Shown here: in pieces, positions 23,495 through 47,317 of the stretch
How the letters are laid out: the number at the start of each line of letters is the position of its first letter
Numbering within the stretch: position 1 is the stretch's first letter
NCBI GenBank assembly: GCA_040882355.1
Contig: JBBEBM010000057.1
Location: 6,823 to 70,822 of the forward strand
Length of the DNA stretch: 64,000 bases
Source: Dehalococcoidia bacterium
GTDB taxonomy: Bacteria > Chloroflexota > Dehalococcoidia > DSTF01 > RBG-16-68-14
Direction: 5' to 3'
The notes under the pieces: model-generated
The model's database searches: none
What the model was told of the DNA's origin: nothing
Seen by the model: only the letters and a program-made list of their open reading frames with translations
Program-made: the position numbers and the translations under genes

Positions 23495-23514
23495 GGGCGG
23501 CTCGCGAGCCGCCC
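23495..23514. terminator. Perfect 20-bp GC palindrome downstream of nadA
   Basis: GGGCGGCTCGCGAGCCGCCC followed by CTACAT. No U-tract. A near-identical copy at 30365-30384 abuts the nth stop codon. Confidence 0.4.
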
Positions 23515-23623: not shown

Positions 23624-24187
23624 GTGTCGCTGGACATCGGAACCGGCGACGGACGCGCCGTGTACGAGCGCGCCCAGCGCGAGGCGTCTCGATTCTTCAT
23701 CGGGCTGGACCCGGCGCCGGGCATCGAGTACTCGCGGCGGGCGGGTCGCAAGCCGGCGAAGGGCGGCGTGGCGAACGCGCTGTTTGCAGTCGGGTCGGTG
23801 GAGTCGCCGCCCGCTGAGTTGGCAGGCGTCGCGGGTGAGCTAACGGTCCTCTTTCCCTGGGGTACGCTGCTGCGCGCGTTCGCGCTGCCCGATGTCGATG
23901 CGCTCCGCAACGTGCGGCGCTTGTGCCGCGACGGCGCGTCGCTGGAGGTGGTGCTGTCGTACGCGGAGCGCGACCGCGGTGAGCTGGCGCGGCTCGGGCT
24001 GCCGGGGCTGTCTCAGGCGCACCTCGAGGGCGCCCTGACGCGGGGCTATCGAGACGCCGGCTTCCGCGTGGCCAGCGTCGAGACGCTCACGCGCGACGAG
24101 CTGCGCGCGCTGCCGTCGACGTGGGCGAAGCGGCTGGCGTTCGGCCGGCCGCGTGAGGCGTGGCGGGTGCGGGCCGTCGCCGGGTAG
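23624..24187 (+). CDS. NpmA/KamB-family 16S rRNA (adenine1408-N1)-methyltransferase homologue (N-terminally short)
   Basis: Matches the family along its whole length: DIGTGDGR, FFIGLDP, KPAKGGVANALF, ELAGVAGELTVLFPWGTLL, GLPGLS, FRVASVE, STWAKRLAFGRPRE.WRV. Both A1408-stacking Trp positions are present. GTG start with an in-frame stop 30 nt upstream. Confidence 0.72.
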   Translation: MSLDIGTGDGRAVYERAQREASRFFIGLDPAPGIEYSRRAGRKPAKGGVANALFAVGSVESPPAELAGVAGELTVLFPWGTLLRAFALPDVDALRNVRRLCRDGASLEVVLSYAERDRGELARLGLPGLSQAHLEGALTRGYRDAGFRVASVETLTRDELRALPSTWAKRLAFGRPREAWRVRAVAG

Positions 24188-24244
24188 GCGGAGGCGAAAG
24201 CCGAGGACAGCTCCGCCGGCTGGCTGTTGCGCGAAGGAGGCTGA

Positions 24245-24435
24245 GGGCCATAATGCGGGAGGTGGCTGGACCGAGGCCACCGTTAGACGGCCGTAGTACA
24301 CGGCTGGGGCGGTCTGTTAGCGATCAGCGCGGCGTCGACATCTCGACCAAGCGGAAGGCGGCTCCCGCCGCACATCGCGGGGGTCATCGCTCTCGTTCTC
24401 CTCGCCTTCCTGTTGCGGGTGGCCTGGGTGGCCGC
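24245..24435 (+). repeat. 191-bp block shared by GT-C paralogues 1 and 2 (copy 1)
   Basis: Identical to 26438-26628 except one base (24282 g versus c). Spans the SD-ATG at 24253, the G5 run at 24379-24383 and the first TM helix of the enzyme. Confidence 0.95.
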
Positions 24436-26050
24436 GGTCGACCTAGACCCGTTCTCTCCAGAGCCGCACAACGTCACCTTCTACGACGGCGCCTTCTACT
24501 ACAACGCAGGGCGCGGGCTCGCTGACGGCGCGGGTTATACGGGCCTGAACGGCGAGGCCACAAACCTGTTCCCGCCGGGCTATCCGCTGGTCCTTGCCGG
24601 CTCATTCCTGCTGTTTGGCGACGGTCTGATGGTTGGCAAGCTTGTAAACGCATTCTTGGGCGCGGTGACGGTCGTGCTCGTCTACGCACTGGCGACGAAG
24701 GTGGTAGATCGCCGCGTCGGCCTGGTGGCGGCCGCCATCATGGCGGTCTACCCCGCGCAGATCCTCTCCTCCGCTCTGCTGATGACCGAAGTCCTCTTCA
24801 CCGGCCTCGCCGCGCTTCTCTTGCTCCTCCTGGTTGCCTGGACGGCTGAGCGACGGGCATCGACCTGGCAACTGCTGACCCTGGGCCTGTTGGTCGGCTT
24901 CATGACCCTGGTGCGCACAGAGGCCCTGCTGCTCATCCCGGCGCTTCTGGTGCTTTGGAAGCTCCTCACGCCTTCTTGGCAAGAGACCGGGCGATACGCC
25001 GCGCTCCTCCTGATCGCGGCGCTCCCGCTGCTGCTCGCGTGGTCGATGCGCAACTATGTCGAGCTGGGCGACCTAGAGCTGCGTTCTGGTGGAGGGACCG
25101 CCCTACGTATGGGCATCAGCCCGAACTTCGATGCGCACCTGACGGCGTGGTACTTTGGCGTGGCGCCGCCACCCATCGCCGATACGCTCCGCCACTTCGC
25201 GACCCATCCCTGGGATGTGGGCGTTCTCGCGCTCCGGAAGCTGGCCTTCCTGTTTCGAGACGACGCGGACGTTGTCAAGGAGACTCAGAAGTACGTGCCT
25301 CAGCCGCTCTCGGACGGAGCGGGGGCTCGTTGGTCGGCCCTGACCAACTGGTACTACTACGCCGTTGGCGTGTTAGCGATGATTGGCATCGCGGCGTGGC
25401 TCCGAACTCTGGACAGGCGGCGCCTGGTCGTGCTCTGGTTCGTCGCGAGCTGGAGTCTTATCTACCTGCTCTTCGTGCCCCAAGGGCGGTACCACCTTCC
25501 CGTCGTCCCGGTCCTTGCCACCACGGCCGCCTTCGCGGCAGTCAGTGCGTGGCAGTTCGCGCAGGACGGAGGCGTTGCGCGCGCCGTGGCCTCGCTCCGC
25601 CACGAGCTCCTGCCGCCACAACCAGCGCTCGCGCCGGTGCTTGCGTTCGCCGTCCTGGTCGTCGCCATAGCGACGACGATCGCTCAAGGGCGCCCCGACG
25701 CCATCGCCCCTTACCGAGACATCGCGCGCCGAAACGATCTCTTGAAGCTCGCCGGATCGGTCAGCGACTTCTCGCAAAGATTCGGCGGCTTCCCCTCCAC
25801 CGGCGGGCTTGACCAGAGCGAGCCGCTCTGTGTGTCTGACAGCGATCTTGGTTGCGTCTTGCGGGCCGTCATGCGAGATGAAGACCTCCCTGTCGATCCA
25901 TTTGGTGACCCCGAGAAGAACGGCTACTGGTTCGCCTCTGACGGCCAAACGGTTGTCCTCTACGCGCTCCGGGAAACCGGCGCGTATCCCTCCTGTCCGA
26001 GTCCGCCGCTACTCGGCAAGAAGGACCTCCAGTGTCTTCGCCTACCTTAG
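24413..26050 (+). CDS. GT-C fold membrane glycosyltransferase (GT39/PMT_2, ArnT-like) with C-terminal TM + pseudopilin (GspG)-like domain, paralogue 1
   Basis: Multi-TM ORF with FYDGAFYYNAGRGLADGAGY loop 1 and PPGYPLVLAG...VLVYALA. The C-terminus shows LAGSVSDFSQRFGGFPSTGG...LPVDPFGDPEKNGYWFASDGQTVVLYA. The ORF-track start is a TTG, and TM1 continues in frame upstream without a canonical start. Confidence 0.75.
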   Translation: MRVAWVAAVDLDPFSPEPHNVTFYDGAFYYNAGRGLADGAGYTGLNGEATNLFPPGYPLVLAGSFLLFGDGLMVGKLVNAFLGAVTVVLVYALATKVVDRRVGLVAAAIMAVYPAQILSSALLMTEVLFTGLAALLLLLLVAWTAERRASTWQLLTLGLLVGFMTLVRTEALLLIPALLVLWKLLTPSWQETGRYAALLLIAALPLLLAWSMRNYVELGDLELRSGGGTALRMGISPNFDAHLTAWYFGVAPPPIADTLRHFATHPWDVGVLALRKLAFLFRDDADVVKETQKYVPQPLSDGAGARWSALTNWYYYAVGVLAMIGIAAWLRTLDRRRLVVLWFVASWSLIYLLFVPQGRYHLPVVPVLATTAAFAAVSAWQFAQDGGVARAVASLRHELLPPQPALAPVLAFAVLVVAIATTIAQGRPDAIAPYRDIARRNDLLKLAGSVSDFSQRFGGFPSTGGLDQSEPLCVSDSDLGCVLRAVMRDEDLPVDPFGDPEKNGYWFASDGQTVVLYALRETGAYPSCPSPPLLGKKDLQCLRLP

Positions 26051-26079: not shown

Positions 26080-26322
26080 CTAATCAGGGGACTTGGCCAG
26101 CCCCGGCTGGAACACCGCGGCCGAAGGGCACTCCTTGCGCAACGGGCACACGTCGCACTTGGGGCGCTGGGCGTGGCAGGTGCGACGGCCGTGCTTGATG
26201 AGCTGGATGTGGAACGGGTAGACGAGGTCGGGCGGGACGAGGGCTTCGAGCCAGACATGCGCCTGCTCCGCCGTCGACTTGTCGGGCACGAGGCCGAGGC
26301 GCCGGGCGACGCGATGGACGTG
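26080..26322 (-). pseudogene. 3'-terminal fragment of endonuclease III (nth) left at a duplication junction
   Basis: Encodes HVHRVARRLGLVPDKSTAEQAH..HIQLIKHGRRTCHAQRPKCDVCPLR, near-identical to the C-terminus of the full nth at 30385..31086. It lacks the N-terminal two thirds. Confidence 0.8.
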
Positions 26323-26437
26323 GGCGAAGCGGCTGGCGTTCGGCCGGCCGCGAGACGTCTGGCGCCTGCGCGCGGTGGCCACGTAGCCGGGCGCTGCCGG
26401 AGCGGACGGGCGCGCGACTAGCCGTTGCGAAGAAGGC

Positions 26438-26628
26438 GGGCCATAATGCGGGAGGTGGCTGGACCGAGGCCACCCTTAGACGGCCGTAGTACACGGCTGG
26501 GGCGGTCTGTTAGCGATCAGCGCGGCGTCGACATCTCGACCAAGCGGAAGGCGGCTCCCGCCGCACATCGCGGGGGTCATCGCTCTCGTTCTCCTCGCCT
26601 TCCTGTTGCGGGTGGCCTGGGTGGCCGC
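26438..26628 (+). repeat. 191-bp block shared by GT-C paralogues 1 and 2 (copy 2)
   Basis: See 24245-24435. Here the SD-ATG is at 26446 and the G5 run at 26572-26576. Confidence 0.95.
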
Positions 26629-28246
26629 CGTCAACCCCGATCCCTTGCCGGAGGATCCGTACGACGCGGCCTTCTACTACAACGCCGCTCGCAGCCTTGC
26701 CGGCGGTGACGGCTACGTTCGCCTGGACGGCGAGACCACGAACCTCTACGCCCCCGGCTACCCGCTCCTGCTCGCCGGCGCCATCTCCGTGTACGGCGAT
26801 GATCTGCTCTCCGCCAAGCTGCTCAACGTCTTTTTCGGCGCGGCGACGGTCGGGCTCGTCTATGTGATCGGCGCTCGGGTGGCGACGCGCGCGGTCGGCC
26901 TCACCGCAGCGGCGATCCTGGCCGTCCTTCCCGGACAGATCATCTTCACGACCGTGCTCATGACTGAGGTTGTCTTCGCCGCGCTGGCCTCGATGCTGGT
27001 GCTCCTGATCATGCTCTGGACGGCGGACCGGCGGCCTTCAAGCTTGCAGGTCCTGGCCCTGGGCCTGCTGATCGGCGCGATGGCGCTGATCCGGACGGAA
27101 ACGCTGCTCCTGGTACCCGCGCTCGCCGCGCTCTGGCTGTTCTTCGCGCCGAGCCCGCGCGAGCTCGCGCGCTGGCTCGCGGTCCTCGCCGTCGGCGTGA
27201 CGCTGCCGCTGGTCCCGTGGCTGGCGCGCAACTACGTCGAGTTCGACACCCTGACGCTGCGCGAAGGCGCCCCGGCGGCGCTGCGCATCGGGCTCAGTCC
27301 GGACTTCGACGAGCAGCTCGCCGGCGCGTTCTTCGCGCAGGAGCCGCCGTCGTACGCGGAGCTTGCCCGGTACTATCGCGACTACCCGCTGGACGCGGGC
27401 ATCTTCGTGTTGCGAAAGTGGGCGTACCTCTTTGGCCACGAGGACGACCTCATCCGGTGGCTGCAGTGGCACCAGCCACCACCACTTTCGTCGGACGCCG
27501 CGGCGCGCTGGGCGGACGCGTCGGTGTGGTCCTACTACGCCGTCGGGCTGCTCGCAGTCGGGGGAACGGCGGGGTGGCTCGCGCGGCTGGACCGGCGTCG
27601 CGCGGTTATCCTCTGGTTCGTCCTGAGCTGGGCCTCGGTCTTCCTGCTCTTCGCGCCGCAGGGCCGCTATCACTTCCCGCTCGTCCCCATGCTCTCGATC
27701 CTCGCCGCCTACACGCTGGCCGGCTGTTGGGGATTCGTTCGCCGGCAGATCGCCGCCCGGACGGCGAACGTCGCCGCACCCGAAAGGCCAGCGCTGCGCT
27801 GGCGCGCTGTGCTGCCCGTGCTTGCCTTCGCGTTGCTCGTCATTGCGCTGGCGACGACGATCCTTCGCGGCTTCCCGGACTCCGAGGCGCGCACTCGAGA
27901 CCTCCTGCGCCAGGCGGACCTTTCGCGGCTCAGCCAGGCGCTCACAGACTACTCGAGCGAACACGATGGCTTCCCTTCGACCGGCGGGCTCGACCGGGGC
28001 GAGCCGCTGTGCGCGCTGGGCGCGGGGGCAGGCTGCGAGCTGCGAGACGTGCTCAAGCACGACCCTCCCAGCGATCCGCTCGGAACGGCGGAGGAGCACG
28101 GCTACTGGTACGCGTCCGACGGCGACACGGCCATCATCTACGCGCGGCGCGAGACCGACGAACCGTGGGCCGGGCCGGCCTGCGCCTCACCTTCGGCGCT
28201 CAGCGATCGCGGCGAGCTCCAGTGTGTGGTGGTTTCGAGGGACTAG
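26606..28246 (+). CDS. GT-C fold membrane glycosyltransferase with C-terminal pseudopilin-like domain, paralogue 2
   Basis: Collinear with paralogue 1, with roughly half the residues identical by eye. C-terminus: LSQALTDYSSEHDGFPSTGG...PPSDPLGTAEEHGYWYASDGDTAIIYA. Confidence 0.75.
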   Translation: MRVAWVAAVNPDPLPEDPYDAAFYYNAARSLAGGDGYVRLDGETTNLYAPGYPLLLAGAISVYGDDLLSAKLLNVFFGAATVGLVYVIGARVATRAVGLTAAAILAVLPGQIIFTTVLMTEVVFAALASMLVLLIMLWTADRRPSSLQVLALGLLIGAMALIRTETLLLVPALAALWLFFAPSPRELARWLAVLAVGVTLPLVPWLARNYVEFDTLTLREGAPAALRIGLSPDFDEQLAGAFFAQEPPSYAELARYYRDYPLDAGIFVLRKWAYLFGHEDDLIRWLQWHQPPPLSSDAAARWADASVWSYYAVGLLAVGGTAGWLARLDRRRAVILWFVLSWASVFLLFAPQGRYHFPLVPMLSILAAYTLAGCWGFVRRQIAARTANVAAPERPALRWRAVLPVLAFALLVIALATTILRGFPDSEARTRDLLRQADLSRLSQALTDYSSEHDGFPSTGGLDRGEPLCALGAGAGCELRDVLKHDPPSDPLGTAEEHGYWYASDGDTAIIYARRETDEPWAGPACASPSALSDRGELQCVVVSRD

Positions 28247-28425
28247 ACAGTCGCATCGCCATGGTGTGGTGTTTCACACCAACGGCCGACGGGCCTTCGC
28301 GGCGGCTTCAGGACTGACCGGCCCTGACAGCGAGCAGCTTGCGGGGCCGCGGCGCAATGACATAAAGTAGGCCGCTGGCTGACATTCAGCCGCCAGCCGT
28401 CCATCGCACGCAGATAGGGGGAATC

Positions 28426-30267
28426 GTGGCTGCTGCGGCTCCACACAGGGGGCTCCTACCACAGTTCCGGCCTGCGCCCGAACTGCGCTGGCTCGTCGCA
28501 CTCTTCCTGCTCGCCTTCGCCTTGCGAGCGGCGTGGGTGGTGTCGGTGAACCCGGACCCGCTGCCCCGCTATCCCTACGACCCCGCGTTCTACTACAACG
28601 CGGCGCTGGGCCTTGCCGACGGCGAAGGCTATCGCGACGTCGATGACCAACAGACGAACCTTCTTCCGCCGGGCTATCCGCTGGTGCTGGCGGGCTCGTA
28701 CCTCCTGTTCGGCGACGACTTGCTTGTCGGCAAGCTGATGAACGCGTTCTTCGGCGCGGCGACGGTCGTGCTTGTCTACGCGCTCGCGACCAGGGTCGCC
28801 GACCGGCGGGTGGGCCTCGTTGCGGCGGGCATCATGGCGCTCTTTCCAGGCCAGATCTTCTTCACCACCGTGCTTATGACCGAGACCTTCTTCGTGGCCC
28901 TGACCGTCCTCTTCCTCCTCCTGGTCTTGATCTCGACGGTGGAGAGGCAACCAGCGAACTGGGAGCTCCTGGCGCTTGGCGAGCTCGTCGGCTTCATGGC
29001 GCTCGTTCGGGCGGAAGCGATGTTGCTGGTGCTGGCGCTCGCGGTGCTCTGGATGGTGCTGACCGCCTCGTGGCGGGACCTCGGGCGTTACATGGCTGTG
29101 TTCCTGATCGGAGTGCTCCCCCTGCTGTTGGTGTGGTCGGTGCGGAACTACACGGAGCTCGGCGACGTTGAGGTGCGTTCAGGGGGCGGGACCGCGTTGG
29201 CTATGGGTCTCAGTCCGAACTTCGACGAGCAATTGGCGGGCACGTTTGTCGGCGGGACGGCTCCGCCCCTCAGCGACACCTTCCGCCACTATGGAACGCA
29301 TCCCCAGGACATTGCGCTCGTACCGCTCCAGAAATTGTCCTACCTGTTTGGGGGCGAAAACGACGTTTTCACCTGGATCCAGTGGCACGTCCCGCGGCCG
29401 CTTTCGCCCGGCGCGGCGGCTCGCTGGTCAGACCTCGTCAACGGCTACTACTACGCGGTCGGCGTGCTGGCTGCGCTTGGCATCGCGGCCTGGCTGGCGG
29501 CGCCGAACAGGGCACGCATGACCGTCCTCTGGCTCCTGGCCGCCTGGAGCGGCTTCTATCTGATCTTCGTCCCTCAGGAGCGGTACCACTTTCCGGTCAT
29601 TCCCCTGCTCTCGGTCGCTGCGGCGTTCGCTCTGGTCCACGGGCTGCGGTTCGTGAGAGACGGAGGTGCCCGCCGTACACTGGCAACGCTCCGAACAGGC
29701 GGCTTCGCGGCCGCATTCGCGCCGGAGGCGCTGAACCCATCTGGCCGCGGCACGGCGAGGAGGAGCCGCGACGAAGCGGGGCCGGCCAAAGCCCCGGTGC
29801 TCTCGCGCCGGAGCCTCGTCCTGCTGTTCGGGTTCACCGTGCTGGTGCTGGCCATGACGGCCGTGGTTCTTCAAGGCTTTGTCGACTCCGCAGCCGCGTA
29901 TCGGGACTTCCGACGCCAGGTCGATCTCCAGACGCTCGGCAAGACCATCGACAACTACCACACGCTGTACGGCGGCCTGCCTTCGACCGGCGGGATCGAC
30001 CAGAGCGAGCCGTTCTGCGTCTCGGAAGGGAACAAGGCATGCGAGTTCCGAGCACTCTGGCCCGGGCCTGACTTCCCGGTTGACCCTTCGGGCGAACAGA
30101 ACGGCTACTGGTACGGCTCGGACGGCCAGTCGGCCGTCGTGTATGCGCTGCGGGAAACCGACACGTGGTCAGGCCCTCTCTGTGAGTGGGCGCCGCCGCA
30201 GCTCGCCGGCAGGGGCGACTTGCAGTGCCTCCGTCTGCCCCTACCTGCAGCCGGCGAGAACGAATGA
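28426..30267 (+). CDS. GT-C fold membrane glycosyltransferase with C-terminal pseudopilin-like domain, paralogue 3
   Basis: GTG start after an AGGGGGA SD. Intact N-terminus MAAAAPHRG...LRWLVALFLLAFALRAAWV. Longer linker. C-terminus: LGKTIDNYHTLYGGLPSTGG...FPVDPSGEQNGYWYGSDGQSAVVYA. Confidence 0.8.
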   Translation: MAAAAPHRGLLPQFRPAPELRWLVALFLLAFALRAAWVVSVNPDPLPRYPYDPAFYYNAALGLADGEGYRDVDDQQTNLLPPGYPLVLAGSYLLFGDDLLVGKLMNAFFGAATVVLVYALATRVADRRVGLVAAGIMALFPGQIFFTTVLMTETFFVALTVLFLLLVLISTVERQPANWELLALGELVGFMALVRAEAMLLVLALAVLWMVLTASWRDLGRYMAVFLIGVLPLLLVWSVRNYTELGDVEVRSGGGTALAMGLSPNFDEQLAGTFVGGTAPPLSDTFRHYGTHPQDIALVPLQKLSYLFGGENDVFTWIQWHVPRPLSPGAAARWSDLVNGYYYAVGVLAALGIAAWLAAPNRARMTVLWLLAAWSGFYLIFVPQERYHFPVIPLLSVAAAFALVHGLRFVRDGGARRTLATLRTGGFAAAFAPEALNPSGRGTARRSRDEAGPAKAPVLSRRSLVLLFGFTVLVLAMTAVVLQGFVDSAAAYRDFRRQVDLQTLGKTIDNYHTLYGGLPSTGGIDQSEPFCVSEGNKACEFRALWPGPDFPVDPSGEQNGYWYGSDGQSAVVYALRETDTWSGPLCEWAPPQLAGRGDLQCLRLPLPAAGENE

Positions 30268-30346: not shown

Positions 30347-30384
30347 GGTGCACCCCCCCGCCCAGGGCGGCTCGCGCGCCGCCC

Positions 30385-31086
30385 CTACATCGCGTCAGCC
30401 GATGGGCACGCATCGCGCAGCGGGCAGGCGTCGCACTTCGGCCGCTGGGCGTGGCAGGTGCGACGGCCGTGCTTGATGAGCTGGATGTGGAACGAGTAGA
30501 CGAGGCCCGGCGGCACCATCGCCTCCAGGAGGTCGTGCGCCTGCTCCGCCGTCGACTTGTCGGGCACGAGGCCGAGGCGCTTCGCCACGCGGTGGACGTG
30601 CGTGTCGACGGGCAACGCAGGCCGCCCGAGCGCGAAGAGCAGCACGCAGGCCGCCGTCTTCGGGCCGACGCCGGGCAGGCTGCGAAGCCACGCCCGCGCT
30701 TCGTCCATCGGCAGCTCGCGCAGGAACGACAGGTCGAACGAGCCGACGCGCGTCCACACCTCGCGCAGCATCGCCTGGAGGCGGGGCGCTTTCGTCGGGG
30801 CGAGGCCGCCCGGCTGGATGGCGGCCTCGATCGCCTTCACGTCGGCGTCGAGGAGGGAGGGCCAGTTGGGGAAGGCGTCGAGCAGGCGGATGAAGGCGCG
30901 TCCTGAGTTGGTGTCGGACGTGTTCTGCGAGAGCAGCGTGAGGACGAGCTCGGCGATGGGGTCGCCGTGGGGCCGCCAGGGCACGGTGCCGTAGGTGGCG
31001 TCGAGCACGTCGACGACGCGTTGCGGCGTGGGGGCCCCGGGCGGGCGGCGGCGGGGTCTGGTGGTGGCGGGCGCGCGGCGGGGCAT
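30385..31086 (-). CDS. nth: Endonuclease III (HhH-GPD, 4Fe-4S)
   Basis: The internal ATG at 31086 gives 233 aa. Motifs LPGVGPKTAACVLLFALGRPALPVDTHVHRV and C-x6-C-x2-C-x5-C. Confidence 0.9.
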   Translation of the reverse strand: MPRRAPATTRPRRRPPGAPTPQRVVDVLDATYGTVPWRPHGDPIAELVLTLLSQNTSDTNSGRAFIRLLDAFPNWPSLLDADVKAIEAAIQPGGLAPTKAPRLQAMLREVWTRVGSFDLSFLRELPMDEARAWLRSLPGVGPKTAACVLLFALGRPALPVDTHVHRVAKRLGLVPDKSTAEQAHDLLEAMVPPGLVYSFHIQLIKHGRRTCHAQRPKCDACPLRDACPSADAM

Positions 31087-31103
31087 GCGCGAGTTAGGAT
31101 AGC

Positions 31104-31712
31104 ATGGAGGCGATGCGGGTCGAAGACCACCCTCGGCCCGACCCTCGGCGGCAAGCTGCTCGACATCGACGTGGCGCCGGACGGCGCGTGTGTGGCAGTG
31201 TGCGAGGCAGACGGCCAGCAGTTCCTGTCGTTTGGGGGGAAGCGCGTGGAGGTGCCAAGAACCTTCCAGCGCCCTTTGATTCGGGGCCTCAACGATGGCG
31301 TCGCGGTGGCTGTCGAAACCTGGGACCCAGATGGAGACCTGTCGATCGTGTCCGGCACCGGCGAAGTGCAGGCGAGCTTCAACGTGGGAGAAGGCATCAC
31401 CGGCGTACTCGCGTCTTACAACTGGATCGCCGTGACCTACTCGCTCGAACAGCAACTCAAGAAGTCTGGCCGACGCCGGAGGTCCTGCACCTATCAGATG
31501 GGATCACCTCGTTGGGCGGCGTCATGCTCGTGCGCAACCCGCATCAGAACGGCGGAGACATTTTCGCCTGGCGGCTCGGCGAAACGGCCGTAAAGGTCAT
31601 CGCGAACTATGAGGAGTATATTAGGGCCTTGTCGGGCGGCCGCTTCCTGGCCGTGCGTGACGATGGCTACTCGATCCTCTCGTTTGACGAGAGCGATATC
31701 GCGGGGCTTTAG
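31104..31712 (+). pseudogene. Hypothetical gene apparently broken by frameshift(s)
   Basis: Protein-like sequence runs in the frame of ORF 30967 (..LLDIDVAPDGACVAVCEADGQQF...WIAVTYSLEQQLKK). Near 31470 it switches to the frame of ORF 31104 (WPTPEVLHLSDGITSLGG...ILSFDESDIAGL). No clean start is present. Confidence 0.4.
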
Positions 31713-46463: not shown

Positions 46464-46564
46464 AAATAGTCGGCCAAGGTCGTGACATCCCCCCCCCCTA
46501 GTCGGTGCTATAATATCCACACCGGACCGGCTAGGCGGACTGGCTGGACGGCTAGCAGGAGCGG

Positions 46565-47317
46565 TTGGCGATGCTATCGGGTGCATTGGCAGGATTACTC
46601 AAGGTCGGCGCGGTCGCGCTGACCGCAGGCGGGCTTGCCACCGGCATCTACCTCGCTGTGCAGGTCGGTGAAGAAGAGGACGCGAACCGAGCCCAGACCG
46701 TCGAGACGCCCTCGACGATCTCCACCGCGCTCTCGCCGCCGAACCAGGTCGTCAGGCCGACGATCACCCCTACGTACGTCCTCGCGCCGAGCCCAACGCC
46801 GCCCACCGGCGTCGACACGTCAGACTGGAAGACGTACGAGAGCCCGCTGGGGTTCACGCTGAAGTATCCGCCGGGTTGGGCGATCAAGGACTACCAGTCA
46901 GAGGGACTGGCGCCCGGAACCGTGAAGATCCTGAACGAGGCCGCGACCCGCGGCTTTGCCGCCCGGTTGGGTGCCGGAGAGTTGGAAGGAGCGGAGAGCG
47001 GAGAGGCGTGGCTAGACATCTCACCTGACGCCTTCCCTACATTCGATGCCGCCGGAATCATCCACGCCTGCGCCCCTGAGCGTGTCTTGGAGGACCCGCG
47101 GGAGGTTTCACTAGGGGGCCAGCCCGCCGTCCACTGTGTGCAAGAGGGCGCCTCGCCATTCGCGCCAGAGACGACGCTCCGCACGGATACTTACTGGGTT
47201 CGTCTGCCTTCCGGCAGGGTTGCGGGCATCAGTGCCTACACAGTTGATGGCGACGCAGCAACGATTCAGATCGTGGGTGCTGCGGCGGCGACGTTCTGGG
47301 TGCAGGCGAAACCGTGA
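46565..47317 (+). CDS. Membrane-anchored extracytoplasmic protein (paralogue of 8445..9191)
   Basis: See 8445..9191. Preceded by the extended -10 TGCTATAAT at 46506-46514. Confidence 0.8.
   Translation: MAMLSGALAGLLKVGAVALTAGGLATGIYLAVQVGEEEDANRAQTVETPSTISTALSPPNQVVRPTITPTYVLAPSPTPPTGVDTSDWKTYESPLGFTLKYPPGWAIKDYQSEGLAPGTVKILNEAATRGFAARLGAGELEGAESGEAWLDISPDAFPTFDAAGIIHACAPERVLEDPREVSLGGQPAVHCVQEGASPFAPETTLRTDTYWVRLPSGRVAGISAYTVDGDAATIQIVGAAAATFWVQAKP

Follow-up and report, generated by a model that had tools for sequence, protein, structure and literature searches.

A probable gene-conversion tract at the 5' ends of two tandem glycosyltransferase genes from a Dehalococcoidia bacterium, with a putative near-cognate or disabled start codon

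In the 64,000 nucleotides of DNA that we analyzed (the window, from a sediment-metagenome contig of a Dehalococcoidia bacterium), two strongly diverged neighboring genes begin with almost the same 191 nucleotides, and the frame that encodes the enzyme has no ordinary start codon ahead of its first transmembrane helix (TM1). How did the two genes come to share this block, and where does their translation begin? An initial annotation, made from the sequence alone, attributed the shared block to recent gene conversion or to selection on an RNA-level signal. For the start, it proposed an assembly error in a homopolymer, programmed +1 frameshifting or transcriptional slippage, or a non-canonical start codon. 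Features are on the forward strand unless we state otherwise.

Copy 1 of the block (24245-24435) forms the 5' end of paralogue 1, and copy 2 (26438-26628) precedes paralogue 2. A base-by-base comparison of the two 191-nt copies confirmed that they differ only at 24282 (G/C), and that this change is synonymous (CCG/CCC, proline) in the frame of an ATG at 24253. The strong divergence of the coding regions downstream was confirmed as well: the bodies of the two genes are just 62% identical at the nucleotide level, with dS of about 0.9-1.0 and dN of about 0.4. The similarity ends abruptly, as ungapped identity is 30/30 within the block, 13/30 to the left of it, and 19-20/30 to the right. Given a background identity of 62-70%, the probability of 190/191 matches by chance is P < 1e-28. 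Silent sites cannot be held constant by selection, so this identity points to a recent gene-conversion tract, and two of the usual signs of conversion are present (excess similarity over the flanking paralogous sequence, and abrupt borders on both sides). Of the two explanations that had been offered for the block, gene conversion is thus the one that the data support, and we consider it very likely that the block is a recent conversion tract between two tandem paralogues. In this short event, the 5' end of one paralogue would have been replaced by that of the other. The copied piece would run from just 5' of a CATAAT hexamer, through the leader (about 59 nt) and the start region, to the codons for TM1.

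Similar islands are known from rRNA operons and tuf genes (PMC6053082, PMC8022953), where near-identity with sharp borders also lies within diverged duplicates, and where variants are common to the copies, as may be the case here. Compared with those cases, the tract here is very short (191 bp), it spans the regulatory 5' end and only about 20 codons rather than the gene body, and it brings along an abnormal start.

Could the block's identity, or the run of five Gs within it (24379-24383, and 26572-26576 in copy 2; GCG GGG GTC, or Ala-Gly-Val, in the enzyme frame), have been produced by assembly or polishing, for example by the collapse of a repeat? The window is a metagenome contig, and a 191-bp repeat exceeds the usual k-mers. 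We checked the locus in independent Logan assemblies of four sediment runs (X1-X4). In X1, a 191-nt unitig ends at 24245 and 24435, which are exactly the borders of the block, and its depth is about twice that of the left flanks. X2 has a contig that covers 24348-24749; a contig from X3 is identical to 26438-26778 of the window, so it reproduces copy 2 and its right flank exactly; and X4 has a 203-nt contig that spans the block. Each of these contigs covers one or the other run of Gs, and none of them has an indel there. Because the five Gs recur across four independently assembled runs, an assembly error at this site is unlikely, and we take the run to be genuine; the suggestion of a homopolymer error finds no support.

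These assemblies also contain a second haplotype of the block (hapB: 24340 A>T, 24343 T>A, and 24347 C>G), which is carried by the 191-nt unitig of X1 and, next to the flank of copy 2, is found in X4. The window has the first haplotype (hapA) in both copies, and copy 2 is hapA in X3. Since the assemblers pop bubbles, which may mask small differences, the second haplotype implies that the copies may truly differ at one to four more sites that remain hidden. However, collapse could mask a few SNPs at most, as against the 60 or more differences that would be expected, and we find it scarcely credible that the identity of the block or the five Gs are artefacts. The two haplotypes occur in differing combinations of copy and sample (in contigs, not reads, and with phasing blurred by bubble popping), which fits ongoing conversion. 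Conversion between paralogues 1 and 2 is probably recurring.

A separate observation concerns the contig from X4, which has low depth (2.8x). It corresponds to 26430-26632 and to 24245-24439: the left flank of copy 2 and the C at 26475 are joined to the G at 24436 from the right flank of copy 1. Either the graph walk produced this join as an artefact, or the two blocks have undergone unequal exchange, of which this is a trace.

What are the two genes? The region is an old tandem triplication of a gene for a membrane glycosyltransferase of the PMT_2 (GT39-like, GT-C) type. Paralogue 1 (24314-26050; public protein P0001, 540 amino acids, from a GTG at 24428) and paralogue 2 (26507-28246; public protein P0005) match PF13231 with E = 5.8e-14 and E = 1.8e-8, respectively. 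Paralogue 3 (28426-30267) is intact and lies outside the conversion tract, with its own CATAAA box (28361-28366), a GGGGG run, and a GTG start codon. All three exceed the gathering cutoff of the PMT_2 profile (53, 35.2, and 50.9 bits vs. 26.1). For every pair, those with the closest foreign relative among them, dN/dS is 0.3-0.4, which indicates that paralogues 1 and 2 both spent most of their history as functional genes.

The family is rare, with 9 proteins at E <= 1e-10 among 5.8 billion. The closest relative, on ENA contig L001, is 57% identical at the amino acid level and is also present as tandem copies (L001a and L001b). In scans of metagenome and genome contigs, we found about 25 loci, mostly from Chloroflexota (Dehalococcoidia and Chloroflexia), whose identity was 26-41%; these scans yielded no closer relatives. 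Like ArnT and PMT, the paralogues have a PMT_2 domain, and they have the layout of this group: TM1, a loop in which acidic and aromatic residues are conserved (..DPDP..YD.AFYY..), and then many transmembrane helices. They differ from ArnT and PMT in that they score only 35-53 bits against PMT_2, have no solved relative that is detectable by sequence (a sequence search of the PDB gave no match), and carry an extra C-terminal soluble domain. An AlphaFold model built from 6 sequences was too poor for a fold search (mean pLDDT of 48.7).

The soluble domain comprises the C-terminal 110 or so amino acids (about 25720-26050, 27900-28246, and 29900-30267), with the motif ..GFPSTGG.D..EP.C....DP.G....NGYWY.SDG....YA... 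This domain reaches pLDDT of 65-84 in the AlphaFold model, and no other part does. It has no match in Pfam at E < 0.01, and its motif resembles that of the pseudopilin/GspG type.

The surroundings of the array record the duplication. Upstream is a gene for an NpmA/WarA/KamB-like 16S rRNA (adenine1408-N1) methyltransferase (23624-24187; PF24675, E = 2.9e-54), and an endonuclease-III-like gene (30385-31455, reverse strand; identified with Pfam) flanks the other side. Between paralogues 1 and 2 are 3' fragments of both genes, which mark the two sides of an old tandem-duplication junction: an endonuclease-III-like fragment (26085-26322, reverse strand) that is 81% identical to 30363-30600, and an NpmA-like fragment (26303-26390) that is 80% identical to 24104-24191.

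Three further observations bear on these neighbors. First, the methyltransferase directly 5' of the glycosyltransferase array belongs to a family of aminoglycoside-resistance enzymes, and its match to NCBIfam's WarA model is 145 bits, which is under the cutoff of 305 bits. Second, a 3' fragment of a methyltransferase-like gene from upstream (..NFDGSDLTIESPRTVLLAEKG*; positions 1-340 and 2213-2410 of L001) lies ahead of the second copy on L001. As this upstream gene differs from the window's, tandem duplication with remnants of the upstream gene seems to have occurred independently. Third, the same palindromic GC hairpin (GGGCGGCTCGCGAGCCGCCC) is found at 23495-23514 and 30365-30384, within a 35-nt repeat at 91% identity. 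It follows nadA and the endonuclease-III-like gene, and is a repeated terminator-like or REP-like element.

Where does translation of paralogues 1 and 2 begin? The obvious candidate is the ATG at 24253, which, as had been described, opens a frame that runs to 24525. It had also been described as having a Shine-Dalgarno (SD) sequence, since it follows AAGGAGG in copy 1 and GAAGAAGG in copy 2. Both of these are outside the identical block, and only AAGGAGG, which is located in the putative promoter's spacer and is unmatched in copy 2, is a good SD.

The ATG consists of the last two bases of a CATAAT hexamer (24249-24254, and 26442-26447 in copy 2) and a G. CATAAT matches 5 of the 6 bases of TATAAT, as expected for a -10 box of the sigma-70 type. 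A -35-like hexamer, TTGCGC (24227-24232, outside the block), lies 16 nt 5' of it in copy 1 and matches the consensus at 3 of 6 positions. The arrangement TTGnnn-16 nt-CATAA(T/A) is found upstream of paralogue 1, paralogue 3, L001a, and L001b (4 of the 5 5' regions in the window's clade). The exception is paralogue 2, where the spacer is 5 nt shorter (11 nt) due to a difference outside the tract. A scan for promoters and terminators with strict consensus rules gave no match near the block, and none of the RNA-seq runs contains the block.

More broadly, of the 23 upstream regions that we compared, 21 have kept the hexamer, as CATAAT, CATAAA, or TATAAT. In 16 or more distant loci from Chloroflexota, the invariant TGTATAAT (in full, GTGTATAATG(A/G)GGCCTCGGAGC) comes after a terminator hairpin that is GC-rich and has a T tail, and the enzyme frame across the box reads TAA TGA. 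Within the window, [CT]ATAAT occurs just 4 times in 128 kb (64 kb, both strands). Two of these are the blocks, and the other two are 34 nt and 50-56 nt 5' of gene starts that have SD sequences, so all four sites are 34-59 nt 5' of gene starts. Because CATAAT is conserved, rare in the window, and always just 5' of a gene, it is probably a -10 box. The ATG itself is not conserved, as the hexamer is followed by AGG in L001a (CATAATAGG) and is CATAAA in paralogue 3 (CATAAAGTA). We therefore consider it likely that the ATG at 24253 is part of a promoter and is not a start codon. From such a promoter, transcription would start about 7 nt after the box, which would leave the ATG out of the gene's own transcript; transcripts that read through from upstream would carry it.

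Two other upstream regions are worth recording. At 46482-46514 of the window, a run of ten Cs (46489-46498) lies in the 21-nt spacer between GTGACA and TATAAT, 5' of an open reading frame that starts at 46565 or 46571. Changes in the length of this run would shift the spacing of the -35 and -10 boxes, so this may be a phase-variable promoter. And in many of the distant loci (L002, L004-L011, L013-L016, L021, L022, and L027), the invariant TGTATAATG(A/G)GGCCTCGGAGC is followed by a very conserved stretch of about 200 nt that reaches to TM1. This stretch includes a conserved GGAG-N8-TTG, its enzyme frame is open for 55-75 codons with little third-position bias, and there is an optional 24-nt insert with hairpin-like covariation (CGAGC..GCTCG vs. 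CCGGGC..GCCGG). The stretch has no match in Rfam. It could encode a disordered N-terminal extension, form a structured leader, or both.

If the ATG is set aside, the start must be sought in the enzyme frame. Our list of codons confirmed the earlier description of this frame: it is closed by a TAG at 24284-24286, is open from 24287, has no ATG, GTG, or TTG before the TTG at 24413, and encodes TM1 ahead of that first canonical start. The codons for TM1 (VIALVLLAFLLRVAWVAAV, 24383-24439) correspond to the first helix of the entire family, as all relatives share the N-terminal motif ..(S/R)RLW..HLRWVLALxLLAxxLRxAWV. These codons score +8.3 bits over 17 codons in the enzyme frame. Since TM1 is universal in the family and is coding in this frame, a start upstream of 24383 is required.

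The public annotation instead begins both proteins at GTG codons (24428 and 26621), which omits TM1 and would leave everything upstream as leader. The GTG at 24428 and the TTG at 24413 are the first canonical starts in frame, the GTGs are what the gene caller chose (P0001 and P0005), and there is a weak GGTG about 6 nt before the start codon (3 nt upstream, excluding a 3-nt buffer). But every relative has TM1, the coding signal over TM1 is strong (+8 to +15 bits), and TM1 is identical at 12 of 16 positions to paralogue 3 and to L001 despite dS of about 1. Also, given what is generally known of GT-C topology, a protein without TM1 would need to export its first loop, with the acidic motif, as a free N-terminal tail. 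Because TM1 is present in all relatives, the annotated starts at 24428 and 26621 are very probably wrong, and a start at either of the canonical codons, with no TM1, seems quite improbable.

Upstream of TM1, the best candidate is a CTG at 24314-24316 (26507-26509 in copy 2). In position, it corresponds to the GTG of paralogue 3: from the -10 box it is 59 nt to the CTG in both copies, and 59 nt to the GTG at 28426 as well. From the start codon to TM1 there are 23 codons in paralogues 1 and 2, and 22 in paralogue 3, counted there to the codon that aligns with a GTC of paralogue 1. Four nucleotides before the CTG is an SD-like run, GGGG (24306-24309, and 26499-26502 in copy 2), and the GGGGG of paralogue 3 is just as far from its GTG (-8 to -5 vs. 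-9 to -5; GGGG-CGGT-CTG vs. GGGGG-AATC-GTG). L001 has a full SD, GGGGAGGTGATG, followed by GTG at the aligned place. Compared with L001, the SD before the CTG is degenerate (GGGGCGGT) and only 4 nt from the CTG.

The CTG is in frame, it is open to the conserved N-terminal domain, and it is at the position where homologues start, as expected for a near-cognate start. Other near-cognate starts include CUG, AUU, and AUC codons, such as the AUU of infC, and CUG initiates at about 1-2% of the efficiency of AUG in E. coli (bioRxiv 10.1101/063800). By this comparison the expected output would be a few percent of that from AUG. In contrast to infC, no autoregulatory logic is evident here, the SD is weak, and use of the CTG is proposed from its position. 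A non-canonical start is nevertheless the explanation that we favor among the three that had been offered. Translation of both genes would begin, if at all, at the in-frame CTG, which could be either a weak near-cognate start that gives low expression, or a start that was disabled by a single GTG>CTG change and then spread to the second copy by conversion. Paralogue 3 would remain the fully competent gene. We think that there is about an even chance that the enzyme frame is used from about 24314. The full account, which combines conversion, a -10 box, five genuine Gs, and a start at the CTG, strikes us as an even bet too.

The main competitor is a real +1 frameshift mutation. Deleting one G from the five does fuse the ATG and enzyme frames, as had been claimed, so both genes might once have begun at the ATG at 24253 or at a GTG at 24262, with a cytoplasmic extension of about 40 amino acids that ended in ...AAPAAHRG-VIALV. 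A later change from four Gs to five would have been copied to the other paralogue by conversion, and both genes would now be pseudogenes or would be expressed only by occasional spontaneous slippage. Several features of the locus fit this history. A single deletion yields one open reading frame with a canonical start; runs of Gs are generally known to be hotspots for indels; the GTG at 24262 is 7 nt after the -10 box, as in a leaderless layout; and L001's CGC TGG GTC and the CGC GGG (G) GTC of the window differ only by T>G and one extra G. Also, in distant relatives the N terminus is extended by a long segment that begins shortly after the -10 box, and L006 and L013 show that such extensions can be lost by frameshift.

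On the other hand, the ATG is within the conserved -10 hexamer and is missing there in L001a and paralogue 3, the good SD is outside the tract and is not in copy 2, and no homologue has the 43-amino-acid extension. Rare codons (TTA, AGT, ACA, TCT, and GTT) abound among the first 20 codons of the ATG frame, and the entire extension scores -18 bits for codon usage. The five Gs do not vary between the two copies, between the two haplotypes, or among the four samples.

The loss of extensions in L006 (about 1400-1530) and L013 (about 2830-2960) can be seen directly: in each, the extension has lost 1 nt and contains a TAG in frame. Next to TM1, both have an ATG (ALMSRLW), whereas the codon at this place in others is CTG or TTG. 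This is a natural relocation of the start within the family.

We tried several tests that might discriminate between the two frames. The family's N-terminal profile (an HMM) does not, as it gives 49.5 bits for the enzyme-frame tail and 48.9 bits for the tail that is fused at the run of Gs. By codon statistics, the ATG frame scores slightly better across 24314-24378 (+3.4 vs. -8.8 bits), and a clear signal for the enzyme frame appears only from about 24355-24384. When we scanned about 800 combinations for switch points, the best two-frame model was ahead of a single frame by only 7.7 bits, and the exact model from the initial annotation scored -8.4 bits. However, the genuine N-terminal tail of paralogue 3 scores -11.2 bits, as badly as either candidate tail (-11.3 bits for the one in the CTG frame), so the codon test has no power here and is not evidence against a start at the CTG. 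We also considered the substitutions in hapB (in the enzyme frame, the first two are synonymous and the third is P>A; in the ATG frame, they are I>F, S>T, and T>S), and discarded them as evidence because they are too few and too clustered (P of about 0.26 for a given frame).

The segment AAPAAHRG had been said to echo the N terminus of paralogue 3 (AAAAPHRG). The echo is rarer than chance: there were 5 unrelated matches of 6-of-8 or better in 128,000 positions, which corresponds to a region-wide chance of about 5e-3, computed post hoc. But it lacks support at the DNA level, and paralogue 3's version is 13 codons farther from TM1. Searches with nhmmer and local alignment found no significant DNA homology of the window's leader to the leaders of paralogue 3, L001, or the distant loci beyond short motifs. 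A likeness of the window to the distant clade's extension ("RST(T)RL") was dropped as due to chance. As neither the N-terminal profile nor the codon statistics can separate the frames, and the echo is rarer than chance, a change from four Gs to five stays a live rival, though an unlikely one.

Might the two frames instead be joined by programmed recoding? Translation would start in the frame of the ATG or GTG and then shift by +1 at GGG GGU, or RNA polymerase would slip on the five Gs, with the signal under selection. A tRNA-Gly in the P site could re-pair perfectly at +1 on GGGGG, the five Gs are fixed in all the data, and the bodies of both paralogues are intact (about 545 codons). As in prfB, the overlapping frames could be joined by a +1 shift, and the junction is G-rich. 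Unlike prfB, the site (CGC GGG GGU CAU) offers neither a stop, rare, or hungry codon for the A site nor an SD-like stimulator spaced at about 3 nt, so the combination that marks prfB-like frameshifting (a slippery codon, a stop or slow codon, and that stimulator) is absent. Also unlike prfB, the layout is not conserved in relatives, and the upstream start sits inside the putative promoter box. Transcriptional slippage usually involves runs of about 8-9 or more A or T (general knowledge), and five Gs are far shorter. No ortholog has the two-frame layout: L001a, L001b, paralogue 3, and the distant loci use a single frame (with a canonical start in L001 and paralogue 3), and L006 and L013 are frameshifted but have a new ATG.

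Finally, the block's identity extends to silent sites, which indicates conversion and not selection. Overall, the earlier proposal of programmed frameshifting or slippage has no positive support; the rarity of the AAPAAHRG echo keeps it in play, but we consider programmed recoding very unlikely. We think just as little of the broader idea that the two-frame layout is functional, with a leaderless GUG at 24262 or a read-through AUG at 24253, and a +1 shift at or just upstream of the five Gs that adds an extension of about 40 amino acids. If the layout were functional, then the output of enzyme would be set by the efficiency of frameshifting, and conversion would keep a recoding cassette identical in diverged paralogues.

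Nor did we find signs of an RNA-level signal that selection might have preserved. There were no matches to Rfam in the block (window region, E <= 1) or in five related loci. The fold of the block as a single sequence is no more stable than those of shuffled sequences (z = -0.34), and RNAalifold found no conserved structure in four leaders (-2.9 kcal/mol, with 1 covarying pair). A local GTCGA/TCGAC hairpin (24334-24347) is broken by hapB without compensation. We attribute the identity of the block to conversion, not to selection on the RNA.

This finding is ordinary in kind: it is not a new kind of system, and it opens no major question. Its main use is to correct the annotation of these genes, for which it also matters that, on the reading that we favor, the apparent ATG start belongs to a promoter box. 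It is also a clean and small case in which conversion would even out tandem paralogues at their regulatory 5' end only, and would carry along a non-canonical or disabled start. If the CTG is truly used, then it would be a natural near-cognate start in Chloroflexota. For the organism, to judge from these comparisons of sequence, two of the three copies of the glycosyltransferase are probably co-regulated and weakly translated.
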